From IMG/VR virus record IMGVR_UViG_3300020048_000012: a stretch of 64,000 bases of DNA; one strand, 5' to 3'. The notes below the pieces were generated by a model. It saw only the letters and a list, made by a program, of their open reading frames with translations. It was not told the origin of the DNA and made no database searches. Made by a program: the position numbers and the translations under genes. This document shows, in pieces, positions 21,991 to 35,054 of this stretch. The stretch comes from a virus. Position 1 is the first letter of the stretch. Every line of letters begins with the position of its first letter.

Positions 21991-22003
21991 ATTAAATATT
22001 TAA

Positions 22004-22174
22004 TTACTTTTTATCGTAAAGACTTAATCGTTCATTTTCATCGGATAATTGTTTCTGTAAATTATCTGATTCTTTTTGTTTATCTTTTCCGAATATAGCA
22101 TCCCATCGATTATCATATTCTTCTTGTGTCACACTATATGGTCTTGGTTTAGACCCTTTTCCACCATCACTCAT
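22004..22174 (-). CDS. small hypothetical protein MSDGGKGSKPRPYSV (56 aa)
   Basis: Manual translation; below ORF-track cutoff; N-terminal motif familiar from T4-like phages. Confidence 0.65.
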   Translation of the reverse strand: MSDGGKGSKPRPYSVTQEEYDNRWDAIFGKDKQKESDNLQKQLSDENERLSLYDKK

Positions 22175-22325
22175 TTTGATTCAACCTTAATAGTCTCGGC
22201 CAATGACTTTTGGAAACTATCTTCAGATAGTACGTGACTGCCATTACAATATCCAGACGCGCTGCGACCACAACTGCATAATTTTTTGACCTCGGTTAGC
22301 ATAATTTTTTCGCTCATATAGTTCC

Positions 22326-22955
22326 TTATAAGTAATGACAGAATGTCGTCATGATATATTTAGGGTCGCTGATTGGTTTAAATCCACAATGTAGATATTG
22401 CCAAGTGCTCGGAAATATTAGCATACTTCCTTTCTTGGGTTGACAACTAAATCCCAATTTAGGAAATGCTGCGTCACCACCTTCAGGGATATCATTCAAA
22501 TAATATAATGCAGTGATGAATCGACGGGCCGATGCGTAATCACCGACATCAGTATGTAACCCAAATCCATCTTTGCCATTATTCATTGTCCGATTAATTC
22601 TAAAATGCTCAAATCCGTATTTTTCTGGAATTCTAGTTGGAGCATCCTGTGCATCAATATCAATCATATATTCGCCAATAGCTCGAACAGTGTAGTTTAC
22701 TACATGCGTGTGTAGATGTTTGAATAAAGGAATGTGTTGATTATCTGTGACATTCAATTGATCAAATCTAAAGTGGCCTTCGCCTTGCGCGTGAGTAACA
22801 TGTAATTGAGAATTTTTATCATACAATTGCAATAACTCATTGCATAAAGACGAAGGCAAAACATTTGGTTTATACGTGATATAGAACGCCAAATGCGTCT
22901 TATCAGGACGCCAAGTCATATAATCTTCTGGTGCAAGACGAATAATATCATTCAT
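22326..22955 (-). CDS. 2OG-Fe(II) oxygenase (prolyl-4-hydroxylase-like)
   Basis: FGLHTD (HxD), LYYLNDIPEGG, PKKGSMLIFPS...YLHCG...KY. Confidence 0.88.
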   Translation of the reverse strand: MNDIIRLAPEDYMTWRPDKTHLAFYITYKPNVLPSSLCNELLQLYDKNSQLHVTHAQGEGHFRFDQLNVTDNQHIPLFKHLHTHVVNYTVRAIGEYMIDIDAQDAPTRIPEKYGFEHFRINRTMNNGKDGFGLHTDVGDYASARRFITALYYLNDIPEGGDAAFPKLGFSCQPKKGSMLIFPSTWQYLHCGFKPISDPKYIMTTFCHYL

Positions 22956-23680
22956 AATTTTAAATTCCTAGAATACGCTTCAATTTCGACTAATAAATCA
23001 TCTCTACAAATGTCTACATTTATAATTTTACCACTAATATTGTATTTTTGTAAAATATGTTTTACAACTTGATTTGATTCTTTATTCTTTACGTAGATAG
23101 TATACACTAAGTCTGAATTAGTTACACCCGATGTTGTCATCAATCTTCCGATATTATTAAGCGTTAAATCTATTTGACCAAACAAATCATCTTTATACCA
23201 TGTTTCACTGCCACGAATACTGGCTGTGCCAGATATCAATAAGTTATTGTCGTGTATTGCTGCTCGCGAAAATAATGGAACGCCATACACAGATGGATAA
23301 TTGAATGGATCTATTTGATTTGTATTGCTAAAGAAACGAGCTGGCGTTCGTGCTCGCGTATAGATGAGAGTGTATGTATCATCGAATGATCCTAAAGCAC
23401 ATGCAGTAGGATATTCCGTTACATTAAATTTAGTGAATATCTTTTTGCGAACTACATTGAATTTTGAGTATCGCTGAACGCCATCTTCATAACGAAGAAT
23501 ATCGGGTATAAAGTTTCTTATGTTGATAATGTATGGATATTCAGAATTGGGCGTAAACATTGCATTATACGCCCGTTCAATTTGTGATTCTATATCATAT
23601 CCACTTATTTTGATTTTAGTAGTTTGATAATTTTTCATAATATTAAAATGGTGGTCGGAAGAACACTCGAAGTTCCACAT
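22952..23680 (-). CDS. FkbO/Hyg5 chorismatase-like (YjgF-fold) protein, N-terminally short
   Basis: FSRA...LLISGTASIRG...Q...TL.N...IYVK...VDICRDDLLVEIEA matches the C-terminal domain pattern of the family. Confidence 0.72.
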   Translation of the reverse strand: MWNFECSSDHHFNIMKNYQTTKIKISGYDIESQIERAYNAMFTPNSEYPYIINIRNFIPDILRYEDGVQRYSKFNVVRKKIFTKFNVTEYPTACALGSFDDTYTLIYTRARTPARFFSNTNQIDPFNYPSVYGVPLFSRAAIHDNNLLISGTASIRGSETWYKDDLFGQIDLTLNNIGRLMTTSGVTNSDLVYTIYVKNKESNQVVKHILQKYNISGKIINVDICRDDLLVEIEAYSRNLKL

Positions 23681-23727
23681 TTATCCGTATGAAGGATACT
23701 CTCTGCCTCTTAAGATACCCGACCAAT

Positions 23728-23802
23728 TGGTAAGTCGAATAGGATTCGAACCTATATTAAAGCCTTATAATGGACTCTACTCTACCGTTGAGTTATCGAC
23801 TT
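23728..23802 (-). tRNA. tRNA-Ile(TAT)-like with 8-nt anticodon loop
   Basis: Cloverleaf AAGTCGA/TCGACTT, CCA encoded; loop CATTATAA. Confidence 0.6.
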
Positions 23803-23951
23803 ATTTATTATAGTTTAGCACACTGTTCATACACTTTACCTTCACCTACACAAGGTATGAAGGCCCTCGAGGTAAATTCCGACTTTTCACATTTTCAGGT
23901 AATTACTCCTTACTTAGTGTTTCTCAGTTCGTGCAGTGCGCTAAACTATAA

Positions 23952-24048
23952 CATATTAAACCATACTAACTGCCTAAGCCACAAGAGCTTAACCCTGCCC
24001 GTGATGTGAGCTACCTCATCTATCACGCACCCAGTGTGGTTTAATATG
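23952..24048 (-). ncRNA. inverted-repeat-bounded RNA cassette A
   Basis: catattaaaccatac / gtgtggtttaatatg (14/15) enclosing two hairpins. Confidence 0.45.
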
Positions 24049-24049
24049 C

Positions 24050-24145
24050 GAACTCATTGTAGGCAGGGGTCGAACCTGCACGAGGCGTCTATTTCCTCCG
24101 ACCCTATGAGAGGTCTATGACTACCAATTCCATCACTACGAGTTC
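24050..24145 (-). ncRNA. atypical class-II tRNA-like RNA, CAT anticodon
   Basis: Leu/Ser-type D loop, long variable arm, T loop TTCGACC, extended bulged acceptor, no intact CCA. Confidence 0.5.
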
Positions 24146-24194
24146 CTCAGGTGATCAGTCCCGAGAATGGTGAAGGGTAATTAATCCTTCGTTT

Positions 24195-24319
24195 ACCATA
24201 TTTAAGCGTCTTAATATCTCTCATAGTTGACGCTATAAGTTTTCGCAGGCCGTCAAACCCACCGAAATACTCTACGCGTTTCTTGCATAGAGTACCCCGT
24301 CAAGACACTTAAATATGGT
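24195..24319 (-). ncRNA. inverted-repeat-bounded RNA cassette B
   Basis: 17/18-bp arms accatatttaagcgtctt / aagacacttaaatatggt; internal hairpins. Confidence 0.5.
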
Positions 24320-24390
24320 GATTGAGATAAGAATTGAACTTATGACCTCAACGATGTCAACGTTGCGTTCTACCACTGAACTACTCAACC
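24316..24390 (-). tRNA. tRNA-Val(GAC)
   Basis: Cloverleaf, CAACG-TTGACAT-CGTTG, CCA. Confidence 0.92.
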
Positions 24391-24464
24391 AAGTTATGAT
24401 ACACGTATCACTTCAATACGTATCCATCGACTTCCGTCGTGCTTTCTACAATATCTTAAGCTAG

Positions 24465-24540
24465 TACCATATTAAAACACACACCTTGAACCTATGTTTC
24501 TCATCGTGTCCGCACAGGCGGGATGTGTTTTAATATGGTA
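24465..24540 (-). ncRNA. inverted-repeat-bounded RNA cassette C
   Basis: Perfect 17-bp arms taccatattaaaacaca / tgtgttttaatatggta. Confidence 0.5.
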
Positions 24541-24609
24541 GGGCTGCTCGGTAACGATCCGAGTTTTACGAGTTAAAAGCTCGTTACTTCACCTTAAAGT
24601 TTCAACCCC
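24536..24609 (-). tRNA. tRNA-Lys(TTT)
   Basis: ACGAG-CTTTTAA-CTCGT, CCA. Confidence 0.88.
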
Positions 24610-24614
24610 ATGTA

Positions 24615-24689
24615 TGGTCCCGTGGCTCAGATTCAAACTGAGTTCTCTCGGCTTAAGAGGCCGGACTTCATCGTCAAAGTTTCCTCGGG
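24615..24689 (-). tRNA. tRNA-Lys(CTT)
   Basis: CCGGC-CTCTTAA-GCCGA, CCA. Confidence 0.85.
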
Positions 24690-24837
24690 TGTTACGTATT
24701 GAATTATCTTTTACGTGCACACTTTAGACCATACATGGGATCTAAAGGGCACTATCGTTTAGCAGATGCTTTCATATAGTTTCCTTTTGTTTTAAAAATT
24801 AATTATACTCTAATTACGTATTATTGTACACTAATTT

Positions 24838-24914
24838 TGGAAAGCCATGAGAGATTTGAACTCCCGACCTCTTCGTTCGAAGCGAAGTACTCTAGTCCAC
24901 TGAGTTAATGGCTC
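24838..24914 (-). tRNA. tRNA-Arg(TCG)
   Basis: CTTCG-CTTCGAA-CGAAG, CCA. Confidence 0.92.
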
Positions 24915-24920
24915 ATTGAT

Positions 24921-25124
24921 TTACGCGTAAGAATAAAACGTCTTAGACTTACCTTTAGAATTAGTTACAACGCTTGTGTTAATCGCGTATCCATGTTCAC
25001 GGATATCGCTAATGCGTGCGCGGACAGCATTTGGCGTAGTCTTAAGGCGTGATGCAAGTTGTGCGACGGTTTGTGTTTTGCCTTCAAGCACGAGAGTTTC
25101 AAAGATTTTGCGTTTAATCGACAT
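24921..25124 (-). CDS. small winged-HTH DNA-binding protein
   Basis: TVAQLASRLKTTPNAVRARISDIREHGYAI HTH pattern. Confidence 0.7.
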   Translation of the reverse strand: MSIKRKIFETLVLEGKTQTVAQLASRLKTTPNAVRARISDIREHGYAINTSVVTNSKGKSKTFYSYA

Positions 25125-25146
25125 AATATATCCTCTTATAATAAAA

Positions 25147-25220
25147 TGGAGTACTCATAGGGAATCGAACCCTATTACCCGGTTTTGCAGACCGTTGCCT
25201 ATCCAACTGGCTCTGAGTAC
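25147..25220 (-). tRNA. tRNA-Cys(GCA)
   Basis: ACGGT-CTGCAAA-ACCGG, U73, CCA. Confidence 0.92.
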
Positions 25221-25224
25221 AAAA

Positions 25225-25299
25225 TGGTGCCGCTCCTAGGTTTCGATCCTAGTACCAAGGAATTATGAGTTCCCTGCTCTCCCATTGAGCTAGAGCGGC
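25225..25299 (-). tRNA. tRNA-Met/Ile2(CAT)
   Basis: GGGAA-CTCATAA-TTCCT, CCA; Met versus lysidine-Ile not resolvable by eye. Confidence 0.88.
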
Positions 25300-25307
25300 A
25301 AATAAAA

Positions 25308-25625
25308 TTAACACTTCCACTGGACCAGCCTGGCGTACAGACTGCGGTGGCTCCACCGACAGAAACGTTTATCAGGATTTGAAGAACTTTGATTGCCTCG
25401 AGTCTTTCGACTTGTCAATGGCTAATCGTTGTGCTTTCATGATTTAAACGTTTATCTTTGACACTTAAACTTTGAACTTTAATATTTAAACGTTGAGGTT
25501 CCATATTGGTAGGCATTTCTGCCCGATAGTTCGTTGATTTAAAATATCAATGATTTGTCCATATTTTGATACTGAGGACAATAAGTAAGGCCGTTCTAAT
25601 CTGTTCGGTCCAGCAAAGTGTTAAC
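25308..25625 (-). ncRNA. unknown ~320-nt structured RNA with tandem 7-nt repeats
   Basis: Terminal pairing TTAACACTT-TGCTGGACC / GGTCCAGTG-G-AAGTGTTAA; GNRA hairpins GGCA-GAAA-TGCC and AGTC-GAAA-GACT; heptad tract 25420-25497. Confidence 0.65.
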
Positions 25626-26264
25626 TTAAAAACTGATAGTTGTCTTGGCGTTAACCTCAGACAAAGTGAAATCCAATTCAGTATCGACAAGAGAAATTTC
25701 TTCCTCAAGTGCAGCAATCTTCTCAACAATGTTGACTGGGTCAATCAATGCAGCTTCCTTCATAGCCTTCTGAGGCTTAGCAATTAGGTCATATGAACCT
25801 GCGTCCACCTTGGATTTATCGCTACCATAAATGGTCTTCAAGTTAGAGTCAATGTCTTGCTCCAACTTGGCGTTCAATTGAGACACAAGGCCTTGAGCAC
25901 GAGTTTGTTGAAGACGCATAACATTCAACAGATTACGCTTGCTGTCGATCGAACGCTTCATTTCGATAGCTTCTGCGACAGTCACTTCAATCGAACCAAT
26001 CTTCACTGTCGTGACAGCATTGGACTTAACGATCGCAGCTTTGATTGCGGCACGTTCCTTAAACAGCGAATTCACAGTATCAAAAGAACTCTGGATCTTA
26101 GCCTTAGCCTGATCGACGGACAGTCCTGCCGTATCATTGACCTTCATCTGAGCGTCTTTACCAACACTGACAGTCACAAACATACCGGCACTCGTCGCAC
26201 GAGCAATACGGTCATCGAGACGCTTCAATTCAGCCAAAGCACGAGTTACAGACATTGTGTTCAT
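25626..26264 (-). CDS. coiled-coil hypothetical protein with internal two-fold repeat (212 aa)
   Basis: Start reassigned to MNTMSVTRAL (SD AAGGA 7 nt upstream; longer ORF-track start overlaps a tRNA). Confidence 0.85.
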   Translation of the reverse strand: MNTMSVTRALAELKRLDDRIARATSAGMFVTVSVGKDAQMKVNDTAGLSVDQAKAKIQSSFDTVNSLFKERAAIKAAIVKSNAVTTVKIGSIEVTVAEAIEMKRSIDSKRNLLNVMRLQQTRAQGLVSQLNAKLEQDIDSNLKTIYGSDKSKVDAGSYDLIAKPQKAMKEAALIDPVNIVEKIAALEEEISLVDTELDFTLSEVNAKTTISF

Positions 26265-26296
26265 TTTCATTTCCTTCATAGTTAAACGTTGATTAT

Positions 26297-26375
26297 TGGT
26301 ACCCAAGAGGAGACTCGAACTCCTAACTTTTCTTCGTTCTTAGCGAAGCGCCTTTTCCAATTTGGCAACAAGGGC
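26297..26375 (-). tRNA. tRNA-Leu(AAG), short variable region, two acceptor mismatches
   Basis: CTTCG-CTAAGAA-CGAAG, A73, CCA. Confidence 0.7.
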
Positions 26376-26381
26376 ATTATA

Positions 26382-26456
26382 TGGTACCTCTGCCAGGAAT
26401 TAAACCTGGATCTGAACCTTCGCAGGGTTCTGTGATATTCATTTCACTACAGAGAT
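26382..26456 (-). tRNA. tRNA-Arg(GCG)
   Basis: GAACC-CTGCGAA-GGTTC, CCA; atypical T loop. Confidence 0.82.
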
Positions 26457-26462
26457 AAATTC

Positions 26463-26610
26463 ATTATTGTTAAGAGTTATCATGCAAATTTAGGAGTGAG
26501 GTGCTTCCTCTCCAAAGCCGATGCAGTTATATTAGGATCAGTCGCCGGCCGCTTTGACCCGAATAGATTACACGTCTGTAATCGATACCTTGATAACGCT
26601 TAACAATAAT
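26463..26610 (-). ncRNA. inverted-repeat-bounded RNA cassette D
   Basis: 12+7-bp arms attattgttaag-a-gttatca / tgataac-g-cttaacaataat; internal hairpins. Confidence 0.5.
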
Positions 26611-26822
26611 AAAACACATTAGGAGTCCTATGGAGGGGAGATTATGACCTTCGGAACAACCCTAAGAACTAACGTGTTTTAATAAATCAGAGGCTGGTCT
26701 AAGATGTCACAGAATCGAACTGTAAAACCATCATCTTAAAGAGCGCGGAGTTTCTAGCTACTCATTGCTCCACTCGGCCGAGTTAACCCGTTACATGCGC
26801 TAACACATAACACCTCTAAACT

Positions 26823-26900
26823 TGGTGTGAGCATCCGGATTCGAACCGGAGTATCTGAGTTGGCAACCCAGGACATTAGACCAAACTATGCTATGCCCAC
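26823..26900 (-). tRNA. tRNA-Gly(GCC)
   Basis: CTGGG-TTGCCAA-CTCAG, CCA. Confidence 0.88.
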
Positions 26901-26907
26901 GAAAATA

Positions 26908-26982
26908 TGGTGCTCCCATAAGGACTTGCGCCCTACTCTGAGGCTTACAAAACCCCTGCATCGCTATCTATGCTTTGAGAGC
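26908..26982 (-). tRNA. tRNA-Thr(TGT)
   Basis: GGGGT-TTTGTAA-GCCTC, CCA. Confidence 0.85.
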
Positions 26983-27109
26983 AGATCCAACTGTGAACTT
27001 ATGCTAAGCCGTTGGCGCTTTCGCAGCCAGATCAAGGTTCTGGAAGACCTAAATTGGTGGGATCAGTTTCACAGTCGTCCCGGCGTGTAGGATATACTAC
27101 AACTATATC

Positions 27110-27180
27110 TGGATGCGGGTGAAGGGCACGATCCTTCTGGGCCGAGCTTATGAGACTGGCCGATCACCTGAATACCCGCA
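27110..27180 (-). tRNA. tRNA-Met(CAT)-like with reduced D arm (71 nt)
   Basis: TGCGGGT/ACCCGCA, loop CTCATAA, CCA. Confidence 0.65.
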
Positions 27181-27236
27181 ATATTTTGTTTATTGATTAA
27201 TTATACAACAATTTCTATTTAATAGAAAATCTAATT

Positions 27237-27311
27237 TGGCTCCCCAGGAAAGGTTCGAACTTCCGACCAAGTGATTAACAGTCACCTACTCTACCACTGA
27301 GCTACTAGGGA
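27237..27311 (-). tRNA. tRNA-Asn(GTT)
   Basis: GGTGA-CTGTTAA-TCACT, G73, CCA. Confidence 0.93.
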
Positions 27312-27413
27312 ATAATAAAAATGTAGTGTAACTGGAGTCTTAATTACCAGTATAGCGCAGGCGCACGCGGGAGACTAATCATCTCAGGCAAGTGATAACG
27401 CCTACTACAAAAT

Positions 27414-27499
27414 TGGCTCCACGGGTAGGGATCGAACCTACGATTGTCAAAAGACGACTGGTTAACAGCCAGCTGCATTACCTCTCTGCGCACCGTGGA
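27414..27499 (-). tRNA. tRNA-Asn(GTT) with long variable arm (86 nt)
   Basis: GCTGG-CTGTTAA-CCAGT, extra arm GTC-TTTT-GAC, G73, CCA. Confidence 0.85.
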
Positions 27500-27587
27500 A
27501 TAAAATTCATTGAATCGATTCGGAATTTAACCGCTCTGTTTCCTCTTTCGAGTGAAGGCTCGTTCGACACCTCCCAGATCACTTATT

Positions 27588-27661
27588 TGGTTGGTCTGTT
27601 ACGAATTGAACGTAAATCGGTCGCTTATAAGGCAACTGCTCTCCCATTGAGCTACAGTCCA
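27588..27661 (-). tRNA. tRNA-Ile(TAT)
   Basis: GTTGC-CTTATAA-GCGAC, CCA. Confidence 0.85.
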
Positions 27662-27669
27662 ATAAATTT

Positions 27670-27744
27670 TGGTACCTGGTGTTGGTTACGCTCCAACTAC
27701 AAACGCCTTATCAAGACGCTACCTCGCTATTCGGTCTACCAGGC
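27670..27744 (-). tRNA. tRNA-Ile(GAT)
   Basis: GCGTC-TTGATAA-GGCGT, CCA. Confidence 0.85.
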
Positions 27745-28013
27745 ATGCGGACCCAGATTTATGTCATTAGGCCCATTAGACAGAGGTCTCTTGAGTTTAG
27801 ATAGTCAAGCTATCAAAGCGAGTTGGAGACACTGCTTATACATTTGAGTTCCCGTTTGTCATTGTGGCACGGGTCGCCTTGACGTCCTCAAAAAGGTTCT
27901 CAGAAACTGTGTTAACAGTCTTGTCTCGTAAGAAGGAGATCTTGCGTGTTCGTGTGAAAAAGCCCAATCAGTTGGCACTACTTGCGACTCGACTTCTACG
28001 TCTATCTGAAATT

Positions 28014-28090
28014 TGGAGCGTCCACCCGGATTCGAACCGGGACCATCAGCTTGGAAGGCTGTCATGCTAGCCGTTAAACACCATGAACGC
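28014..28090 (-). tRNA. tRNA-Gly(TCC)
   Basis: ACAGC-CTTCCAA-GCTGA, U73, CCA. Confidence 0.92.
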
Positions 28091-28096
28091 AAAACT

Positions 28097-28222
28097 TGGT
28101 GTGTAGAGTAGGTCTCGAAGCCTACAAATAGTACCATACTCTGAGTCGTTAAACTCATATCAGAATCGAACTGAATGACCAGGCTCATCACCCGGCGCGT
28201 TTACCAATTACGCCATCTACAC
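28097..28222 (-). ncRNA. 126-nt tRNA-like RNA with 53-nt variable region
   Basis: Acceptor GTGTAGA/TCTACAC-A-CCA, Leu-type D arm, loop TGATGAG, second T-loop hairpin in variable region. Confidence 0.65.
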
Positions 28223-28230
28223 ATAAAAAC

Positions 28231-28305
28231 TGGTATCCCGTATCGGTTATGCTCCGATCTCAGTAGGGTGAAGGCCTACTTGCCACACTAGCTGCATCAC
28301 GGGAT
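28231..28305 (-). tRNA. tRNA-Glu(TTC)
   Basis: GTAGG-CCTTCAC-CCTAC, CCA; atypical T loop. Confidence 0.8.
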
Positions 28306-28314
28306 ATAAAAACT

Positions 28315-28389
28315 TGGCGATCTTAGCCGGTAACGATCCGGCTCTTCCTCTTAGACAGAGAGGTGTGCGTCCATGAACACTTTAAGACC
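28315..28389 (-). tRNA. tRNA-Asp(GTC)
   Basis: CCTCT-CTGTCTA-AGAGG, G73, CCA. Confidence 0.9.
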
Positions 28390-28747
28390 TAAAATTCAAG
28401 TCACAACCATTGGGACTCATACCCATTCTATAAAGTGTACCAGTGTGACCAGCGTACACGAAGTTTACTCATGGGCATTTACTTTCCCATTAATTCTTAA
28501 ATTAGGTCGGGAATACACGGCGTTAGAAATAAAGTGGCTCTCGGTTTCGAATCAAAAGCGTATGAATATAACTTCTGTCCCTAGGCAGTCTTTCCGCCGA
28601 CAATGTGTTTCAAACCCCTACTGGACCGACTTACTCTCGCATCGTCAATGATCTGTGGCTTAGTACGTCCAGCATTATTGAAGACCTCCCAGTCTCGGAA
28701 GGCTCGGCACCCATCTACTCATCCTACTAAACATTGTCTTAGTAACT

Positions 28748-28824
28748 TGGCTCCCGTGGCACTCATCGCATAGTGCGTTATCTAACCATTGGCTAAGGTC
28801 CGCGCAGACCCGCTAAACACGGAA
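28748..28824 (-). pseudogene. degenerate tRNA-like sequence
   Basis: Acceptor TTCCGTG/CACGGGA-G-CCA and T-like arm present; D and anticodon arms irregular. Confidence 0.45.
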
Positions 28825-28831
28825 ATAAAAT

Positions 28832-28917
28832 TGGTGGAGTTTGTCACAGGCTTTCACTGTGATTTGCTCAGCTAAGTTATAGCTGCTTTCGTCCTATATG
28901 TTACGTATTCAAACCCC
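28832..28917 (-). ncRNA. D-armless tRNA-like RNA with Ala acceptor identity
   Basis: GGGGTTTG/CAAACTCC-A-CCA (G3:U70), arm CAGCT-ATAACTT-AGCTG, arm TCACAG-TGAAAGC-CTGTGA. Confidence 0.55.
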
Positions 28918-28983
28918 ATAAATTGGTGGACCCCTGTTTCTATGCCTGGGCCCATTGATAGAGTATCTACTATCAGCATGTTT

Positions 28984-29059
28984 TGGTGGAGGTGAGGAGG
29001 ATCGAACTCCTATCTAAGCATTGCAAGTGCTCCGTGTAACCCATTATCACTACACCCCC
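28984..29059 (-). tRNA. tRNA-Ala(TGC)
   Basis: G3:U70, GAGCA-CTTGCAA-TGCTT, CCA. Confidence 0.92.
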
Positions 29060-29065
29060 AAAAAC

Positions 29066-29137
29066 TGGTGGACCTATGGGGAATCGAACCCCAAGCATGG
29101 CATTGCAAGTGCCTTTCCCGTCCCATACGGTAAGCCC
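29066..29137 (-). tRNA. tRNA-Ala(TGC), short D arm
   Basis: G3:U70, AGGCA-CTTGCAA-TGCCA, CCA. Confidence 0.82.
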
Positions 29138-29253
29138 AAAATAAAAGTAACGGTATATGGATTCTTTCCCGTCAGTTGCAGAATTGAACTTTCGAACAAT
29201 CGCCACATTCCAAGTACTCCGTGAAAGGGAGGATGTATCTGCATCTTATAAAC

Positions 29254-29329
29254 TGGTCAGTGATGTTGGTCCCGCCCCAACGGCCTCTCGCTTCCAAAAC
29301 GAGTACTCTACTAGCTGAGCTAATCACTG
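29254..29329 (-). tRNA. tRNA-Pro(TGG)
   Basis: CTCGT-TTTGGAA-GCGAG, C1-G72, CCA. Confidence 0.87.
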
Positions 29330-29434
29330 TAAATTCTTGCTGTGGTAGCTAATACCTCAAGCACAAGCAGTGCATCCCAGTTACGCTGGTTCGTTTATGC
29401 AAGGGCGAGTTTGCTTACGCCTTAGAGTGCTCAT

Positions 29435-29510
29435 TGGTCTCCATACGAGGATTTGAACCTCGGCTTCTTGGTCCCAAACCAAGTGCGCTACCAGGCTACG
29501 CAATACGGAG
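29435..29510 (-). tRNA. tRNA-Pro(TGG)
   Basis: CTTGG-TTTGGGA-CCAAG, CCA. Confidence 0.93.
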
Positions 29511-29516
29511 AAAATC

Positions 29517-29602
29517 TGGTGGATGCGGTAGGATTCGAACCTACAAGTCCGTGAGGAGCCGGATTTACAGTCCGGGGAGCCAACCAATTGCTCAACACAT
29601 CC
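29517..29602 (-). tRNA. tRNA-Tyr(GTA)
   Basis: CCGGA-CTGTAAA-TCCGG, long variable arm, CCA. Confidence 0.92.
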
Positions 29603-29610
29603 AAAATTAA

Positions 29611-29720
29611 TTATACATAAACATACTCGCATCTGCCTTTGGAGCCGCGTGTTCCTCCCCTTGTTTTACCACAGGATCCTGTGGAGGAGTGTGCACATTT
29701 ACACCAATGTTTATGTATAA
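29611..29720 (-). ncRNA. inverted-repeat-bounded RNA cassette I
   Basis: Perfect 14-bp arms ttatacataaacat / atgtttatgtataa. Confidence 0.45.
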
Positions 29721-29831
29721 TCATATTGAAACATATTCCAGGGGGATTCGCACTTGCCTTTTCTTCAGTAAACACTGACCCTGCATCTTAAATCAATAAG
29801 AGGAACCTAACAAAATATGTTTCAATATGAT
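29720..29831 (-). ncRNA. inverted-repeat-bounded RNA cassette J
   Basis: Perfect 18-bp arms atcatattgaaacatatt / aatatgtttcaatatgat. Confidence 0.5.
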
Positions 29832-29914
29832 CCCGAGGGTATCTCGGTAAATTGAGTAGCATTCCAGCGACAGTCCGATTACCAGTCGGATGCCTGCATC
29901 TCTACACAATCATT

Positions 29915-30036
29915 ATCATATTCAAATGCTCCGGGAATACTGAAGGGCATTCTTAGCATCTCTCTTTCCACAGTATAAGACGAATGGAAGATTGCTTAAC
30001 TCACCCCATGTTCAAACCAAAACACTTGAATATGAT
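29915..30036 (-). ncRNA. inverted-repeat-bounded RNA cassette K
   Basis: Perfect 11-bp arms atcatattcaa / ttgaatatgat. Confidence 0.4.
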
Positions 30037-30598
30037 TCCTGAAGCAGTGAACCAGCACACGTGTCCGGCGCTTACTTCAGGATATCATGAAAAATCATCA
30101 AATTTTGAAAGAACAAATCGGGATATCTTACGATACATTACATGCAACAAGGATCGACCAAGCCGCAAACTTTCGTTCACCTCATCAAACATCATTTCTG
30201 TGTTCAACTACCTTAGTGCGCCACTTAGTGGACTACACTCAGAACCCGATTAAAATTTTAAAGAATCTTTCTTGAAGTCCCGATCAACTTCTAAGATTTT
30301 ATTATACCACATTTACTAATTAAAGTAAACAAGTATTTTAAAAATTGTGATACGCTTGGTGTGAAACAAGTCGTCTTTATGTGCGTTCTTTTTTGGCTAT
30401 ACCTGCGAGTTTCACGCAGCGTCAATAAACACATAAATTTCACAATTTTTAAAGAACTTCCAAGCAAACTCGATGGTTTGTTTGTTTATGGATTTATTAT
30501 ACCACGAAGTCTATTTAATGTACACCGTTTTATGCATTATTTTTAGTGCTTCAGGTGACTTCAAGAGACTTACGTTGGTATACTTACACTTGCCCGAT

Positions 30599-30649
30599 GA
30601 ACAATGACGTACGTACACTTGATGCACATAAGTTGTTGATTTATATAGG
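30599..30649. repeat. promoter-upstream module copy 3
   Basis: gaacaatgacgtacgtac...taagttgttgatttatatagg. Confidence 0.88.
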
Positions 30650-30655
30650 CCTAAA

Positions 30656-30730
30656 TGGCATCCCGACTAGGACTCGAACCTAGACATGCAGTTTTGGAGA
30701 CTGCAGTGCTGCCAATTACACTATCGAGAT
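30656..30730 (-). tRNA. tRNA-Trp(CCA)
   Basis: GCAGT-CTCCAAA-ACTGC, G73, CCA. Confidence 0.93.
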
Positions 30731-30743
30731 ATGAAAATACAAA

Positions 30744-30818
30744 GGGGTGACCTATGGGGAATGCTCCCATTCTATCGCTTTCACAGAGCGAGGTGCGAAA
30801 CTTTTACACTAAGGTCAC
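30744..30818 (-). tRNA. tRNA-His(GTG), CCA not encoded
   Basis: TCGCT-CTGTGAA-AGCGA, C73. Confidence 0.85.
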
Positions 30819-30836
30819 ACCTTTGTATTCTAAACT

Positions 30837-30913
30837 TGGTGCGTCTGGAGGGATTTGAACCCCCAACAGTTCGGGTAGAAGCCGAGTACTCTATCCAGTT
30901 GAGTTACAGACGC
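30837..30913 (-). tRNA. tRNA-Arg(TCT)
   Basis: CTCGG-CTTCTAC-CCGAA, CCA. Confidence 0.92.
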
Positions 30914-30920
30914 AAATTCT

Positions 30921-30997
30921 TGGTGCCCGAGGTCAGATTCGAACCGACACGATTTTGATTTTGAATCAAACGCCTCTACCAATTGGGCTACACGGGC
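30921..30997 (-). tRNA. tRNA-Leu(CAA), short variable loop
   Basis: TTTGA-TTCAAAA-TCAAA, CCA. Confidence 0.88.
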
Positions 30998-31006
30998 AAA
31001 TATTCT

Positions 31007-31083
31007 TGGTGCGAATGGCGGGACTCGAACCCGCAGATTATGGGTTTTAAGCCCACTGCCTATACCAATTCGGCTACATTCGC
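31007..31083 (-). tRNA. tRNA-Leu(TAA), short variable loop
   Basis: GTGGG-CTTAAAA-CCCAT, CCA. Confidence 0.9.
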
Positions 31084-31097
31084 ATACTAACTAATTC

Positions 31098-31185
31098 TGG
31101 CGGAGCATGTAGGAATCGAACCTACTCACCACTTACGCAGTGACAGATTAGCAATCTGTTGCCTTAACCGGTCGGCCAATGCTCC
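31098..31185 (-). tRNA. tRNA-Ser(GCT)
   Basis: ACAGA-TTGCTAA-TCTGT, long arm, G73. Confidence 0.93.
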
Positions 31186-31193
31186 TTAAAATT

Positions 31194-31268
31194 TGGTGCT
31201 TCGTGACAGATTCGAACTGCCGACCCTCGCCGTGTAAAAGCGTAGCTCTACCACTGAGCTAACGAAGC
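31194..31268 (-). tRNA. tRNA-Val(TAC)
   Basis: Loop TTTACAC, CCA. Confidence 0.9.
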
Positions 31269-31269
31269 A

Positions 31270-31503
31270 TTAACCATTTCGTCTACACTTATAGACATAT
31301 TCTAATCCATCTGGCAATACGCCATCATTGATACTATCAACACCAGATTTTCCAACTTGATTTGGATCTTCGCATACTGTTGTAACAAATGACATACCCA
31401 ATTTACGCATTCCTTCTGACACTTCTAACGCTCTAAGTAGAGTCGCTGTGTCTACAGCGTGTGACCAGTTTGTGACTGGATCAGTATAATACACTTTAAA
31501 CAT
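31270..31503 (-). CDS. hypothetical protein
   Basis: ORF track 77 aa between tRNAs. Confidence 0.7.
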   Translation of the reverse strand: MFKVYYTDPVTNWSHAVDTATLLRALEVSEGMRKLGMSFVTTVCEDPNQVGKSGVDSINDGVLPDGLEYVYKCRRNG

Positions 31504-31518
31504 AATTCACTTTATTTA

Positions 31519-31595
31519 TGGTGGGGATGGAGAGACTCGAACTCTCAGCTTACGGCTTCTAAGACCGCTGCGTCTACCAATTGCGCCACATCCCC
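31519..31595 (-). tRNA. tRNA-Leu(TAG), short variable loop
   Basis: GCGGT-CTTAGAA-GCCGT, CCA. Confidence 0.9.
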
Positions 31596-31604
31596 GAAAT
31601 ATAT

Positions 31605-31678
31605 TGGTCAGTGATGGAGGTACCGCCCCTCCGCTTCAAGTTTCCAAAACTCGTAGACTACTTTTATCTCAATCACTG
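31605..31678 (-). tRNA. tRNA-Pro(TGG)
   Basis: CGAGT-TTTGGAA-ACTTG, CCA; acceptor identical to copy at 29254. Confidence 0.8.
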
Positions 31679-31685
31679 ATTAATC

Positions 31686-31759
31686 TGGTGCCCCTTCAAG
31701 GAATTGAACCTCATTCTGATGCTTACAAGGCAACTGTAATACCAATATACTAAAAGGGC
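31686..31759 (-). tRNA. tRNA-Thr(TGT)
   Basis: GTTGC-CTTGTAA-GCATC, CCA. Confidence 0.88.
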
Positions 31760-31763
31760 TTCT

Positions 31764-31834
31764 AATATTTGAGCATACTAACTGGATCCATCTCGCACTA
31801 GGTGCATCTCGGGCGATCAATATGCTCAAATATT
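31764..31834 (-). ncRNA. inverted-repeat-bounded RNA cassette M
   Basis: Perfect 14-bp arms aatatttgagcata / tatgctcaaatatt. Confidence 0.45.
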
Positions 31835-31874
31835 GGAGCTGCTACGGAGAATCGAACTCCGCTTGTCGGGATGA
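31834..31874 (-). pseudogene. 3' half of split tRNA-Glu
   Basis: TCAT-CCCGA-CAAG-CGGAG-TTCGATT-CTCCG-TAGCAGC-T-CCA; no 5' half adjacent. Confidence 0.85.
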
Positions 31875-31876
31875 TC

Positions 31877-31951
31877 TGGAGTCGCATACGGGAATCGAAC
31901 CCGTCTCTACAGCATGAAAGGCTGTTGATCTAACCGATAATCTAATGCGAC
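31877..31951 (-). tRNA. tRNA-Glu(TTC), intact, overlapping endonuclease stop
   Basis: ACAGC-CTTTCAT-GCTGT, GTCGCAT/ATGCGAC, CCA. Confidence 0.92.
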
Positions 31952-32616
31952 ATTGTTCTACCTTGTTTAAATCCTTCTGGTATTATATCACTATCTTTTA
32001 TTCTGGTGTTCACTTTACCATCAGTTATCCAAACTTGCTTATATTTTCTTTTATATTCTTTAACTTTTTTACCAAGTAATGAATCAGAAATTTTCTTCTT
32101 CATCTCATCTGTCATTGTGTTCTTAGATTTTTGATGTCTGCCGGCACAAATTCTACTACAAAATTTTGTTTCGGTTTTTATCTTTCTCTCTGTTTCAAAC
32201 TCAATTTTACAACAATCACAGAGATGTTTATATTTTGGTTTATATCCATCGTATAGTTCAAAGTATTTCTTTGTTCCATATTTTCGAGTAACATATTCAA
32301 ATGCGTATTGTAAATCATCTTTACGTAACACATTTACAATATAACCAAAAGATTCAGCAACCTTTGTTTTCTTATCAACAAATTCTTGTTTCTCGTATCC
32401 CTTTGTTTCTATTATCGTTTTTCCATCAGATAATAGAAAATCAGGATAATAAGTTATTCCATCTTTTTCTAACTTTCCAGGAAATCTTTCGAACTCAATG
32501 TGGTGATCTAAACTATAGATCACCCAACACAATTCATAAGTGCTACCGCAATATATTCCATTATAGTATCCACTTTTTGATCTTCCAGAACCTTCTCTAT
32601 ATCCACCTATTGTCAT
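31942..32616 (-). CDS. PD-(D/E)XK-type free-standing homing endonuclease with Zn-finger and NUMOD-like tail
   Basis: YYPDFLL...IIETKG catalytic motif; CDCC/CSRIC; VWITDG; late promoter 32635-32642. Confidence 0.8.
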   Translation of the reverse strand: MTIGGYREGSGRSKSGYYNGIYCGSTYELCWVIYSLDHHIEFERFPGKLEKDGITYYPDFLLSDGKTIIETKGYEKQEFVDKKTKVAESFGYIVNVLRKDDLQYAFEYVTRKYGTKKYFELYDGYKPKYKHLCDCCKIEFETERKIKTETKFCSRICAGRHQKSKNTMTDEMKKKISDSLLGKKVKEYKRKYKQVWITDGKVNTRIKDSDIIPEGFKQGRTMSH

Positions 32617-32634
32617 ATAACACCTCCATTTTAT

Positions 32635-32642
32635 TATTTATA
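32635..32642 (-). promoter_or_regulatory. late promoter TATAAATA for endonuclease gene
   Basis: Exact consensus followed by SD GGAGG. Confidence 0.72.
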
Positions 32643-32651
32643 TAAAATGAG

Positions 32652-32677
32652 TGTCCTAACCGATAGACGATAGCAGC
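32652..32677 (-). pseudogene. 5' half of split tRNA-Glu
   Basis: GCTGCTA-TC-GTCT-ATCGGTTA-GGAC-A; GCTGCTA pairs perfectly with TAGCAGC at 31838-31844. Confidence 0.85.
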
Positions 32678-32762
32678 AAAAATTTGCGAGCATCTCACGA
32701 TGTGTCGACTTCGTATCTTATGCACCGTATTCGACCGATGACTCAGAAAAATACGCTATAAC

Positions 32763-33044
32763 TCAGCGACGTTGTACGTATACGTCGATCGTGCGTGCAT
32801 CTTCAAGCTTGAAGCTTTTGACACACTGATTCTTGTATTTCGCGTAAGCAGGATTTCCTTTGCCTAAACGAGCTTTTAAACAAACTCTAAACAATACCGG
32901 AGTTTGCTTGTGCCACTTTGCGGTCAAGACTGCACTTTTGTTGACAGAACGAATTGACTTGCGAACCGCTTCAATTTTGTCCATGTCAGACGTACTCATC
33001 GGGTCAGCGGTGAATACGTAAGCGTCTGTTCTTGCCTTTTTCAT
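32763..33044 (-). CDS. early hypothetical protein
   Basis: ORF track; directly downstream of early promoter 33070. Confidence 0.7.
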   Translation of the reverse strand: MKKARTDAYVFTADPMSTSDMDKIEAVRKSIRSVNKSAVLTAKWHKQTPVLFRVCLKARLGKGNPAYAKYKNQCVKSFKLEDARTIDVYVQRR

Positions 33045-33088
33045 AATCTATCCTTGTTTCGATAGATCAATTATACCACAAAGTCTAA

Positions 33089-33250
33089 TTATTGTACACC
33101 GTTTTCTTCTTTTTTCTTGCCGTATGTCTTAACGATGCTTTCGCCGCTAATCATCATATTCTTAAAATGATTGCGCTGTTCATCGCTTGTCAAAGTCGCC
33201 ATCAAGCGCTTTGTCTGTTTCGAAAGTTTAAAATGTCCATTTGTCTTCAT
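33089..33250 (-). CDS. small hypothetical protein (start MKTNGHF)
   Basis: ORF track frame; SD GGAG before ATG at 33250. Confidence 0.55.
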   Translation of the reverse strand: MKTNGHFKLSKQTKRLMATLTSDEQRNHFKNMMISGESIVKTYGKKKEENGVQ

Positions 33251-33276
33251 AATATCTCCATTAAAAAATATATACA

Positions 33277-33355
33277 TGGTGGGAGGTCTAGGAATCGAAC
33301 CTAGTTCTTCTGCTCTTCAGGCAGACGCTGGAATCACCAGACTAGCTCACCTCCC
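33277..33355 (-). tRNA. tRNA-Phe(GAA)
   Basis: TCTGC-CTGAAGA-GCAGA, CCA. Confidence 0.92.
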
Positions 33356-33363
33356 GAAATTCA

Positions 33364-33579
33364 CTAAATCTTCATCAATCCATCAAAATACGCTTTCCAC
33401 GATTTAGCATATTGGTCTACACTAAACTGCAGTGTCGTATACATCTGCGTATAAAACCATCCGTAATGTTTTACAGCATCTTCAAGCGTTTCACTTTTCA
33501 ATGCGCGTTTGAGATGATATGACGCTGGAATTTTATACATTCTTTCTTTCCTCTGCAATCTTCTGGATAACATGTTCAA
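33364..33579 (-). CDS. hypothetical protein
   Basis: ORF track. Confidence 0.5.
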   Translation of the reverse strand: MNMLSRRLQRKERMYKIPASYHLKRALKSETLEDAVKHYGWFYTQMYTTLQFSVDQYAKSWKAYFDGLMKI

Positions 33580-34081
33580 GAAGAATTGGTTTAAAATCGG
33601 TATGCTCTACTGAAACACAGTGGTATCTAGTATCTATACGAGATACGCCATGCTTATCGATGAGCATCACTCGATCACTATGAAGATGTCCATGTACATT
33701 TGCAGTAAATTTTCTGAAACTAGCTTCATGGATTGGAATGTGAGTCAAAAGCAAATTGCTCAACGAATAAGATCCATGAACATCTTCAAAAAATGGAGCG
33801 TATTCGTCCATTCTAAGATTATCATGATTGCCCTTAATGAGAACTTTCTTACCATTGAGTCTATTCATAATACCAATAGACCTACGATTCATGACAACAT
33901 CGCCAAGATGATAAACTTTATCTCCTGGTTTGACTGTTTCATTCCAAGCCTTTACCAATGCTTCATCCATTTCATCTGGATTAGTCCATGGACGCAATTT
34001 AGTGACACCATCAGATTGTGTAAATCTGCAAACGCCCATATGACCAAAATGTGTATCCGATACGATGTAAACTGCAGGCAT
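33533..34081 (-). CDS. calcineurin-like metallophosphoesterase
   Basis: SDTHFGH, YHLGD, IKGNHD, LTHIP, HGHLH. Confidence 0.9.
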   Translation of the reverse strand: MPAVYIVSDTHFGHMGVCRFTQSDGVTKLRPWTNPDEMDEALVKAWNETVKPGDKVYHLGDVVMNRRSIGIMNRLNGKKVLIKGNHDNLRMDEYAPFFEDVHGSYSLSNLLLTHIPIHEASFRKFTANVHGHLHSDRVMLIDKHGVSRIDTRYHCVSVEHTDFKPILLEHVIQKIAEERKNV

Positions 34082-34209
34082 TTTAAAATTTCCTTATAAT
34101 TCGTTTTATTTAATAAAATTATTATACCACGAAGTCTATTTAATGTACACCGTTTTGTGCAGTATTATTTCAAAGTGATAGTGTGTATATATCACTCAAG
34201 TGTTATAAG

Positions 34210-34301
34210 TGGCGGAGAGCAGAGGAGTCGAACCCCATCCCATTTCTGAGAACCTGGTTTTCAAGGCCAGTCGCAGGACCATCCCCGCTGCATTACTCTC
34301 C
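34210..34301 (-). tRNA. tRNA-Ser(TGA)
   Basis: CTGGC-CTTGAAA-ACCAG, long arm, G73. Confidence 0.9.
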
Positions 34302-34308
34302 GAATTTT

Positions 34309-34386
34309 TGGCAGGGGTAATTGGATTCGAACCAATGATGACGATTTCAAAGACCGTTGCCTTAGACCAAACTAGGCGATACCCCA
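34309..34386 (-). tRNA. tRNA-Gln(TTG)
   Basis: ACGGT-CTTTGAA-ATCGT, G73, CCA. Confidence 0.92.
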
Positions 34387-34592
34387 ACAATAGTAAAACA
34401 TTCATTAAACATTTTACTATAGCCCCTGAGAAGCAGTGGACCGGCACAAAGGCCGGCGCTTACTTCTCAGGTGACCATTAATCAGACTTTCGTCTGATTT
34501 TTAGAATTCACTAAATTTTTAAAGAGCGTTGGAAGTTTCCTTCCTTAGAGTGTATTATAACACCCTGACGATTTATTGTACACCGTTAAACA

Positions 34593-34622
34593 CAAAAGCC
34601 CCAATCTTTCGAGAGGGGCTTT
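34593..34622 (-). terminator. intrinsic terminator
   Basis: AAAGCCCC-TCTCGAAAGATT-GGGGCTTTTG on minus strand. Confidence 0.7.
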
Positions 34623-34765
34623 GGCGTGATCCTACTGATCTTACACTTAGCCCCTAATTATCCCAACCCTCGATCGAATGCTGAGGACGCGCATTAAATT
34701 TACTGGTCGTATAGACCGGCAAAGTTGTGCAGTTGGATAAGAGTGTATGTATTAACATTGTATTT

Positions 34766-34773
34766 TATTTATA
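34766..34773 (-). promoter_or_regulatory. late promoter TATAAATA
   Basis: Exact consensus overlapping stop of ORF 34769..34978. Confidence 0.55.
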
Positions 34774-34978
34774 CGTCGAGAACGGCTCCTGCGCCACTCC
34801 AGACAACTTTATTTTCGTCTTCGTACAATCTAAATTCATAGTCTGCAATGTCAAATCCAAACGCTTCACATGTCGCTTCAACTGCATTGACGCCGGGTAC
34901 GATGTCTTTGTACCAACCGACTTCAACACCTTTTTTGAAAACTTTTACTTTTGTCTTTTCCATTACTTGATCTTTCAT
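34769..34978 (-). CDS. hypothetical protein
   Basis: ORF track. Confidence 0.6.
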   Translation of the reverse strand: MKDQVMEKTKVKVFKKGVEVGWYKDIVPGVNAVEATCEAFGFDIADYEFRLYEDENKVVWSGAGAVLDV

Positions 34979-34987
34979 ATCGCGGTG

Positions 34988-34995
34988 TATAAATA
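34988..34995 (+). promoter_or_regulatory. late promoter TATAAATA for antisense endonuclease gene
   Basis: Exact consensus about 60 nt upstream of ORF 35055. Confidence 0.7.
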
Positions 34996-35054
34996 TAGTG
35001 TCTATCGCGATATCTCACTATCCATAGACTCTAACACTAACAAGGAGTGCCAGC

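Follow-up and report, generated by a model that had tools for sequence, protein, structure and literature searches.

Does the non-coding stretch behind a small gene in a phage tRNA array hold an RNA of its own and, if so, do that RNA and the protein encoded before it belong together? The question goes back to the first-pass annotation of a 64,000-nucleotide viral sequence (IMG/VR record IMGVR_UViG_3300020048_000012; the whole stretch is called the window below), which proposed a new ribonucleoprotein system made of a coiled-coil protein and a downstream stem-closed RNA. The source of the window is a T4-like phage, as judged from its split topoisomerase II, RNA ligase 1, DNA ligase and exonuclease genes, and we found no close relative among the 50,697 phage records searched. 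The window encodes 33 tRNA genes, all of them (33/33) on the minus strand.

Layout of the locus and fold of its RNA

Between the tRNA-Leu and tRNA-Met genes that flank the locus (Table 1) there was one ORF only, which codes for 212 aa. Its ATG, at position 26264, lies 33 nt from tRNA-Leu and its stop codon occupies positions 25626-25628. The 318 nt after the stop (25625-25308) contained no credible ORF, and the 317-nt RNA starts 2 nt past the stop codon. Across the gene-RNA unit we found no terminator-like sites on the minus strand and one promoter-like site, which was weak (9 of 12) and located within the coding sequence. The earlier suggestion that the unit may be co-transcribed with the tRNAs is consistent with this absence of terminator-like sites.

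The segment reached a folding energy of -90.7 kcal/mol, compared with -64.9 +/- 4.7 in dinucleotide shuffles (z -5.53; 0 of 100 shuffles were as good). Its ends, which had been reported to pair over about 18 bp, pair over 17 bp: 9 bp (RNA nt 1-9 with 309-317) and 8 bp (RNA nt 11-18 with 299-306) flank a small internal loop, and this closing stem covaries in relatives. The TTGTCC/GGACAA hairpin and the two hairpins with GNRA (GAAA) tetraloops that had been described were all present. The first description of a stem-closed RNA with hairpins therefore stands as far as it went, but the real fold is more elaborate: helix P2 crosses P3, which makes the window RNA a long-range pseudoknot. The CAGGCTGG motif consists of the P3a 3' strand, followed by CU and the start of the closing stem. 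In the window clade, P2, P3b and P3a have their 3' strands directly one after another and P1 begins two nucleotides on, which suggests a coaxially stacked core.

The A-rich tract at RNA nt 128-197 (70 nt) showed an adenine period of 7 with a power of 3.67, a value that none of the 2000 shuffles reached at any period. The 7-nt repeats described in the first pass were thus confirmed, and the array is conserved: it could be aligned among relatives and formed in-phase runs across clades. The exact 7-nt phasing was looser in the T5-like, Bacillus and Lactococcus versions, an observation that counts against a protein-RNA particle.

Table 1. Positions of the gene, the RNA and its parts, and the flanking tRNA genes in the window, in the direction of transcription.
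Feature	Position	Strand	Remarks
tRNA-Leu(AAG)	26297-26375	-	Directly upstream of the 212-aa gene; co-oriented tRNA array
Partner-protein gene (PHROG 1491), 212 aa, stop included	25626-26264	-	Predicted four-helix bundle with small sheet; SNAxT motif twice
Full-length structured RNA, 317 nt	25308-25624	-	Window-clade variant of the RAGATH-27-linked RNA family
P1 closing stem, 5' strand (RNA nt 1-9, 11-18)	25607-25624	-	17 pairs, 16 changed on both sides, 91% paired
P2 pseudoknot, 5' strand ACAGAUU	25598-25604	-	Immediately 3' of the conserved GA junction
P5 hairpin UUGUCC/GGACAA, conserved loop AGUAUCAAAAUAU	25555-25581	-	Fold and covariation
GAAA-capped hairpin 1, variable region	25512-25524	-	GNRA hairpin here in most window-clade relatives
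Heptad array, ~10 in-phase 7-nt units NUYAAAG	25428-25497	-	Periodicity analysis
GAAA-capped hairpin 2	25395-25422	-	Fold and alignment
Invariant CAAAGnUCUUCAAAU lead-in, then P3a (CCUG) and P3b (CGU) 5' strands	25365-25391	-	Alignment and covariation
P4 hairpin, conserved apex UGGAGYC	25345-25358	-	Alignment
Contiguous 3' strands of P2 (AGUCUGU), P3b (ACG) and P3a (CAGG)	25329-25343	-	Alignment and covariation
P1 closing stem, 3' strand	25308-25326	-	Covariation alignment
tRNA-Met	25225-25299	-	8 nt downstream of the RNA 3' end

A conserved RNA family tied to one gene family

Every homologous gene that we inspected was followed by an unannotated gap of 0.36-0.65 kb (367 nt in T5). Common to these gaps are a module at the 5' end, a YAAAG heptad array that can be aligned, and a 3' module that closes with AAAUCC ... 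GGCUG and the strand that pairs with the 5' end. In all clades the RNA begins 2-26 nt past the stop codon. We distinguished a main clade, in which the first 86 nt of the RNAs are exactly RAGATH-27 (Rfam RF03100, an 86-nt orphan candidate sRNA), and the clade of the window. The real length of the RNAs in this RAGATH-27-linked family is 260-480 nt, and they are closed by P1 and pseudoknotted.

The main-clade alignment comprised 24 non-redundant sequences. Its closing stem P1 (13 bp) was paired in 99% of the cells, with 11 of the 13 pairs changed on both sides, and the long-range pseudoknot P2 (7 bp), in which a 5' single strand pairs with the loop of the P4 hairpin, within P3, was paired in 97%, with 6 of 7 pairs changed on both sides. 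Double-sided changes were also found in all pairs of the local 5' helix (8/8 pairs, 8 bp; 91% of cells paired), P3b (3/3 pairs, 3 bp; 99%) and P4 (4/4 pairs, 4 bp; 94%), and in 3 of the 5 pairs of P3a (5 bp; 100%). The covariation score was 0.62, against 0.25 in shuffled alignments (0 of 500 as high) and 0.09-0.16 with slid partners.

For the window clade we built a 12-sequence alignment, with eight added loci collected through proteins of 55-69% identity. Here 88.5% of the cells were paired, compared with 67.5% in shuffles, and the covariation score was 0.65, against 0.22 when shuffled (0 of 500 as high) and 0.08-0.17 in the slid controls. The alignment supports P1, P2 (ACANNNN/NNNNUGU), P3a, P3b, P4 and P5. 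Unlike in the main clade, the P2 partner follows P4 and does not lie in the P4 loop, and the hairpin P5 takes the place of the RAGATH-27 pseudoknot module. P1, P2 and P3 were also kept, with different sequences, in the T5-like, Pseudomonas-phage, cyanobacterial and Deinococcus-MAG versions. The G-U pairs in the covarying helices fit the gene's strand only; since such pairs function solely on the transcribed strand, we rejected a DNA-level element (iterons or a replication origin). The covariation establishes the non-coding stretch as a genuine structured RNA that is conserved and closed by a stem.

The linkage of this RNA to the gene was followed from both sides. R1, a covariance model of the RNA 3' module, gave exactly one match per locus, on the gene's strand and 0.2-0.7 kb downstream. 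It scored 59.8 bits in the window, which is part of its seed, and 23.8-40.1 bits in eight window-clade loci outside the seed. The RNA was found behind the gene in 80 of 80 IMG/VR viral contigs, in all 8 window-clade loci outside the model (8/8), in 12 of 13 named phages including T5 (some with weak E-values, all at the expected place; Erwinia phage Ea35-70 by eye) and in 55 of 56 bacterial-genome loci, with the 56th recognised by eye. Phages carrying the RNA behind the homologous gene include T5 and phages of Bacillus, Lactococcus, Vibrio, Klebsiella and Pseudomonas.

The reverse search, which started from the RNA pattern, recovered 66 loci, 49 of them with sufficient upstream sequence. In 45 of the 49 the protein was present; the remaining loci were 2 chance matches inside genes and 2 copies of one truncated RNA, which sit behind an inserted ORF. 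The protein was therefore upstream in 45 of the 47 true matches. An RNA-only search of 151 genomes of one host's order gave a single match, in a genome that also had the protein, and has little bearing on independent occurrence. Because the R1 and the RNA-first searches agree, we conclude that gene and RNA are practically never apart. The linkage taken alone is equally compatible with a cis-acting 3' UTR. Similar protein-plus-RNA pairs, which the first-pass annotation had mentioned for unrelated phages and Firmicutes, do occur across phages, Firmicutes MAGs and cyanobacteria, and the stem-closed periodic RNA that it expected downstream of homologues is there, with covarying helices.

Partner protein and tRNA-array context

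The window protein matched the PHROG 1491 profile from end to end (E 4.6e-58), with residues 1-211 aligned to profile positions 2-208 of 211. The database label of PHROG 1491 is "tail fiber protein". This label is contradicted by the location of the genes in tRNA arrays, in the early region of T5 (the homologue ORF080, which follows an early promoter in the annotation) and in the chromosomes of cyanobacteria, not in a structural module; in addition, the model is a helical bundle and not a fibrous or beta-rich fold, and we rejected the tail fiber identity. Homologues were present in 743 phage records, which include T5-like phages, jumbo phages of Pseudomonas, Vibrio, Klebsiella, Aeromonas and Erwinia, Bacillus Bcp1-like phages and Lactococcus 949-like phages. 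A large protein collection yielded 926 matching proteins, none of them (0) with a Pfam domain.

No match to the window protein was found in Pfam, NCBIfam, PADLOC or the PDB sequences, and the family profile had no match among PDB sequences either. AlphaFold modelled the protein as a bundle of helices plus a small sheet (pLDDT 78.6, pTM 0.71). Foldseek against PDB returned generic helical bundles (best E 0.04), VIA-align returned syntaxin-like bundles with a best Z of 9.9, which is below the meaningful level for helical bundles, and BFVD returned uncharacterised phage homologues only. No known RNA-binding domain or fold was found by the Pfam and structure searches. The family is mildly acidic (median pI 5.8, net charge -2), with a pI of 7.8 for the window copy, and has conserved basic residues at K14, R19, K36, R70, R71, K75 and K103. 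That the protein is not basic and has no known RNA-binding domain or fold speaks against a particle.

A symmetric homodimer was predicted with an ipSAE of 0.56, whereas the best of three controls scored 0.00; the 0.56 mark is reached by 20 of 30 solved same-chain pairs and by 1 of 23 solved single chains. The runs shared at least 87% of contacts, with a partner pLDDT of at least 82, and the modelling thus supports self-association of the protein. The internal two-fold repeat that had been claimed for it held in part: a 14-residue motif, xAxxxSNAxTxxxI, whose end is made up of SNAxT and a strand, occurs twice (residues 76-89 and 199-212; profile versus profile P 0.008), but the rest of the protein does not repeat, as BLASTP of its two halves gave no match. 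We accordingly rejected a duplication of the protein as a whole. Upstream of the gene, the small ORFs do not form a conserved family, and a ProQ/FinO protein was found there only in Aeromonas phage LAh_9.

The window unit is embedded in a dense tRNA array and co-oriented with it. Of the flanking tRNA genes at 177 related loci, 1111 shared the strand of the pair and a single one did not, and same-strand tRNAs were found at 130 of these 177 loci. In filamentous cyanobacteria (Phormidium, Moorena, Lyngbya, Calothrix and others) the pair lies within arrays of up to 29 tRNAs per 5.6 kb, and some cyanobacterial RNAs have a complete tRNA in place of a variable hairpin.

Possible working of the pair and its relation to known systems

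We read the unit as a dedicated protein-RNA pair that belongs to large phages with tRNA genes and to mobile long tRNA arrays. The explanation that we favour, with chances judged to be about even, is a candidate particle in which the protein binds the heptads. Gene and RNA would be transcribed with the tRNA array, and excision of the flanking tRNAs would release a molecule of about 1 kb, or the 317-nt RNA after further processing; RNase P cleavage at tRNA-Met would trim the 3' side of the RNA. In the fold shown by covariation, P1 locks the RNA ends and the P2/P3 pseudoknot ties the core, and this scaffold may present a largely unpaired array of about 10 YAAAG heptads. The heptads would be bound in register by several protein copies, probably paired as symmetric dimers that make use of the repeated SNAxT motif. 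A defined particle could result, by analogy with TRAP or HutP on spaced triplets. Going by its context only, we guess that the probable task of such a particle is to assist the tRNA array, or translation during stress or defence.

A wider form of the proposal, which we put forward as doubtful, is an undescribed class of ribonucleoprotein particles that moves together with mobile tRNA arrays and ranges from T4-like and T5-like phages to the L-arrays of cyanobacteria. It would combine a double-knotted scaffold RNA, about a dozen heptad sites and an oligomerising helical protein. While a phage takes over the cell, or under defence attack or translational stress, it might act on translation or tRNAs, e.g. 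by shielding or chaperoning the tRNAs of the array or by modulating ribosomes.

Other readings of the pair have to be weighed against a protein-RNA particle. The RNA could be a free-standing decoy or sponge, whose A-rich heptads titrate a host factor such as the Hfq distal face, ribosomal protein S1, RNase E or an A-specific defence ribonuclease, with the protein acting in the same pathway and not binding the heptads. About 10 exposed YAAAG units on a nuclease-resistant closed scaffold, a mildly acidic protein with no RNA-binding fold and a context of phage and stress-induced tRNA arrays would all suit such a role. We nevertheless regard it as unlikely: the RNA is strictly linked, one to one, to a single protein family in E. 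coli, Bacillus, Lactococcus and cyanobacteria, and because this linkage holds across such different hosts, a self-contained pair is favoured over a host-specific target. We also consider it quite unlikely that the RNA has no role of its own and is a cis-acting 3' UTR, which would protect or regulate its own mRNA after tRNA excision, for instance by blocking 3' exonucleases or by coupling termination to folding. In favour of such an element, the RNA begins close behind the stop codon in all clades, neither a terminator nor a promoter lies between it and the gene, and it was not found away from the gene except for one truncated relic. Protection, however, needs a simple hairpin, whereas two pseudoknots, invariant junctions and a periodic array have been kept over great distances, and some cyanobacterial copies contain a whole tRNA.

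A catalytic RNA, with a pseudoknotted core that cleaves itself or acts on the precursors of the array tRNAs and with the protein as a cofactor, loosely as in RNase P, would account for the invariant junction nucleotides around P1, P2 and P3 and for the tRNA-array context, and the RAGATH motif series was derived from ribozyme neighbourhoods. It is nonetheless very improbable, given that there was no match to the Rfam ribozyme or RNase P models and that a low-complexity heptad array is atypical of catalytic cores. The analogy to type III toxin-antitoxin systems (ToxIN, AbiQ, CptIN) drawn in the first pass, by which the repeat RNA would neutralise a toxic protein, extends to a protein gene that adjoins a repetitive non-coding RNA on mobile elements. 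It fails on layout, repeat size and protein type: the type III repeats are ~36 nt long and lie upstream of the gene, whereas those of the window are 7 nt long, lie downstream and form part of a large, otherwise non-repetitive fold. The protein is modelled as a bundle of helices and matched neither a ToxN/AbiQ-type endoribonuclease nor any PADLOC model. The pair is also carried by lytic phages such as T5, and we find a toxin-antitoxin role hardly credible.

The system is real, widespread and only fragmentarily catalogued. In T5, in hundreds of other large phages and in the stress-induced tRNA operons of cyanobacteria, a dedicated protein gene is accompanied by a conserved, pseudoknotted RNA of 0.3-0.5 kb, which genome annotation renders as an empty gap beside a mislabelled "tail fiber" gene. 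The particle, if it forms, would add a new RNA-protein machine with ties to tRNA arrays, and carriage by T5 and E. coli opens the pair to direct testing by standard genetics and biochemistry.

Among protein families, a loose likeness to DUF6847/DIP1984 (Pfam PF20935; 3KDQ) had been suggested. Both are small helical proteins with a similar-looking local motif (TNAxT ... V-T-x-A-x-A-I), and DUF6847 genes also have a conserved non-coding element of ~230 nt behind them; that element is, however, unrelated to the window RNA and has no heptads. The likeness could not be detected by Pfam or profile-profile comparison: PF20935 had no match to the window protein at E <= 10, hhalign gave probabilities of 1% and 0.65%, with a value below 1% against 22 DUF6847 sequences, and 3KDQ was absent from the top structural matches of the partner-protein model. 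We therefore rejected a kinship at the profile level. Two faint leads were a weak Pfam match to PF20935 in 1 of 23 family members (E 0.011) and a DUF6847-containing cluster at 0.86 in language-model features.

TRAP is an oligomer that reads 11 spaced G/UAG triplets in single-stranded RNA, and HutP an oligomer that reads UAG triplets with 4-nt spacers, i.e. with a period of 7. The window RNA resembles their targets in its periodic array of short purine-rich units, the number of which (~8-12) is about what a defined oligomer would require, and the heptads share the 7-nt period with the HutP sites. On the other hand, neither protein is related to the partner protein in sequence or fold, and the array lies in a dedicated scaffold RNA and not in an mRNA leader, with no attenuation context. 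The first pass had proposed an oligomeric ring or filament, and a repeat reader of the TRAP/HutP type would be a ring with as many subunits as there are repeats; for the partner protein, a homodimer alone is predicted (ipSAE 0.56 versus 0.00).

GOLLD and ROOL are large ornate RNAs near phage tRNA genes (PMC12286853). They resemble the window RNA as large, intricately folded non-coding RNAs in phage tRNA neighbourhoods, and differ from it in that the window RNA is smaller, has a periodic array and an obligate protein-gene partner, and matches no Rfam model. Translational stress induces the long tRNA arrays (L-arrays) of cyanobacteria, and the L-operons have uncharacterised protein genes embedded in them (Santamaria-Gomez et al. 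2021, PMC8421152); that paper describes neither the partner protein nor the RNA behind its gene. The pair lies inside such cyanobacterial arrays, co-oriented with the tRNAs, whereas the window holds a phage tRNA cluster and not a bacterial L-array.

The closest known element is RAGATH-27, for which RF03100 records neither a partner protein nor a function. None of the papers in the library searched mentions RAGATH-27, and no description was found in a search for the partner protein, DUF6847/DIP1984 or T5 non-coding RNAs. As the first-pass annotation had expected, the pair of the window matches no existing Rfam or Pfam system, and the 5' RAGATH-27 fragment of its relatives is all that is catalogued. 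Rfam covariance models gave no match to the window RNA; RF03100, of which that RNA is not a member, had none in window positions 22000-36000 at E <= 1. At the RF03100 gathering score of 76.1 bits, RAGATH-27 was recovered in some relatives (L023, with 97 bits, and L011 and L057, also above this score) and stayed below threshold in others (L007, L074, L016 and L055). The Rfam model is a fragment with one 7-bp hairpin, in which 46 nt are taken as unpaired. Corrections are due to the PHROG 1491 label, to the extent of the Rfam RAGATH-27 model and to current models, which miss the window-type variant. The window RNA has the features of the full-length RAGATH-27-linked family (P1, P2 crossing P3, AAAUCC...GGCUG, heptads and the PHROG 1491 gene); it has P1, P2, P3, the heptad array and the junction motifs in common with those RNAs and differs from them by hairpin P5 instead of the RAGATH-27 pseudoknot module. 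It is a distant, module-swapped relative of the RNAs with RAGATH-27 5' ends.

tRNA genes and tRNA-like or tmRNA-like sequences in and around the RNA

We found that several cyanobacterial copies of the RNA carry a whole tRNA gene, placed between the 5′ strand of the long-range pseudoknot helix P2 and the array of 7-nt heptads, whereas their relatives have a plain hairpin where the tRNA stands. Some of these embedded tRNAs have unusual anticodons, e.g. Asp-AUC and Thr-AGU. In the jumbo Erwinia phage Ea35-70 (L086), tRNA-like T-arm and D-arm sequences were observed in permuted order in the variable region of the RNA.

In L098, a 189-kb phage contig, a tmRNA-like 3′ end (GGTTCGAATCCGCCCAGCTCCACCA) was located immediately downstream of the RNA, and a tmRNA-like 5′ end (GGGGCTG...GGTTTCGACG) about 110 nt beyond it. 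Because the 3′ end precedes the 5′ end, this arrangement suggests a permuted (two-piece) tmRNA gene. The tRNA region of the window also contained three irregular tRNA-like genes, together with a small ORF whose putative product, judged by eye only, resembles small DNA-binding proteins of a winged-helix-like kind.

Positions of tRNA-related and neighbouring features
Locus	Positions	Feature	Detail
Window	24055-24142	tRNA with two-base anticodon call	ARAGORN
Window	24921-25124	67-aa ORF between tRNA-Arg and tRNA-Cys	minus strand
Window	26911-26982	extra tRNA, missed by ARAGORN	Rfam
Window	34214-34301	tRNA-Sec-like match, below threshold	Rfam, 34.9 bits vs 47
L118	3174-3248	tRNA inside RNA	cyanobacterial copy
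L154	3191-3261	tRNA inside RNA	cyanobacterial copy
L161	3168-3253	tRNA inside RNA	cyanobacterial copy
L174	3229-3302	tRNA inside RNA	cyanobacterial copy
L178	3229-3303	tRNA inside RNA	cyanobacterial copy
L086	~2240-2330	T-arm and D-arm sequences	
L098	~2540-2700	tmRNA-like 3′ and 5′ ends	
L089	1103-1399	ProQ/FinO-family gene	Pfam E 3.2e-19

Neighbouring genes and RNAs

Directly upstream of the partner-protein gene, Aeromonas phage LAh_9 (L089) encodes a ProQ/FinO-family RNA chaperone; the small ORFs found at this place in other phages had no match in Pfam. The phage tRNA region L055, which holds a copy of the RNA, also contained a RAGATH-36 RNA (103 bits) and a below-threshold twister-P1-like match (at 1285-1339 and 1928-2055). 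Such tRNA neighbourhoods are therefore places where several orphan RNAs of the RAGATH series group together. Finally, around the pattern match in two IMG/VR contigs (L184 and L218), a truncated copy comprising only the heptads and the 3′ module was detected behind an inserted ORF, with the partner-protein gene absent within 4 kb; this copy looks like an insertion-derived relic.

Comparison with DUF6847/DIP1984 genes

The DUF6847/DIP1984 family, for which a solved structure exists (3KDQ), comprises small helical proteins whose genes, in Firmicutes genomes (L248-L271), lie upstream of their own non-coding element, which is conserved and roughly 230 nt long (~1-260 nt past the stop codon). Three motifs mark this element: GGTAGC close to its start, TACC..GYGCTGA midway and TGAGGGTGGGnnnGGGG at its end. 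It had no match in Rfam. The DUF6847 gene and its downstream element may represent a second protein-plus-RNA pair, unrelated to the first.
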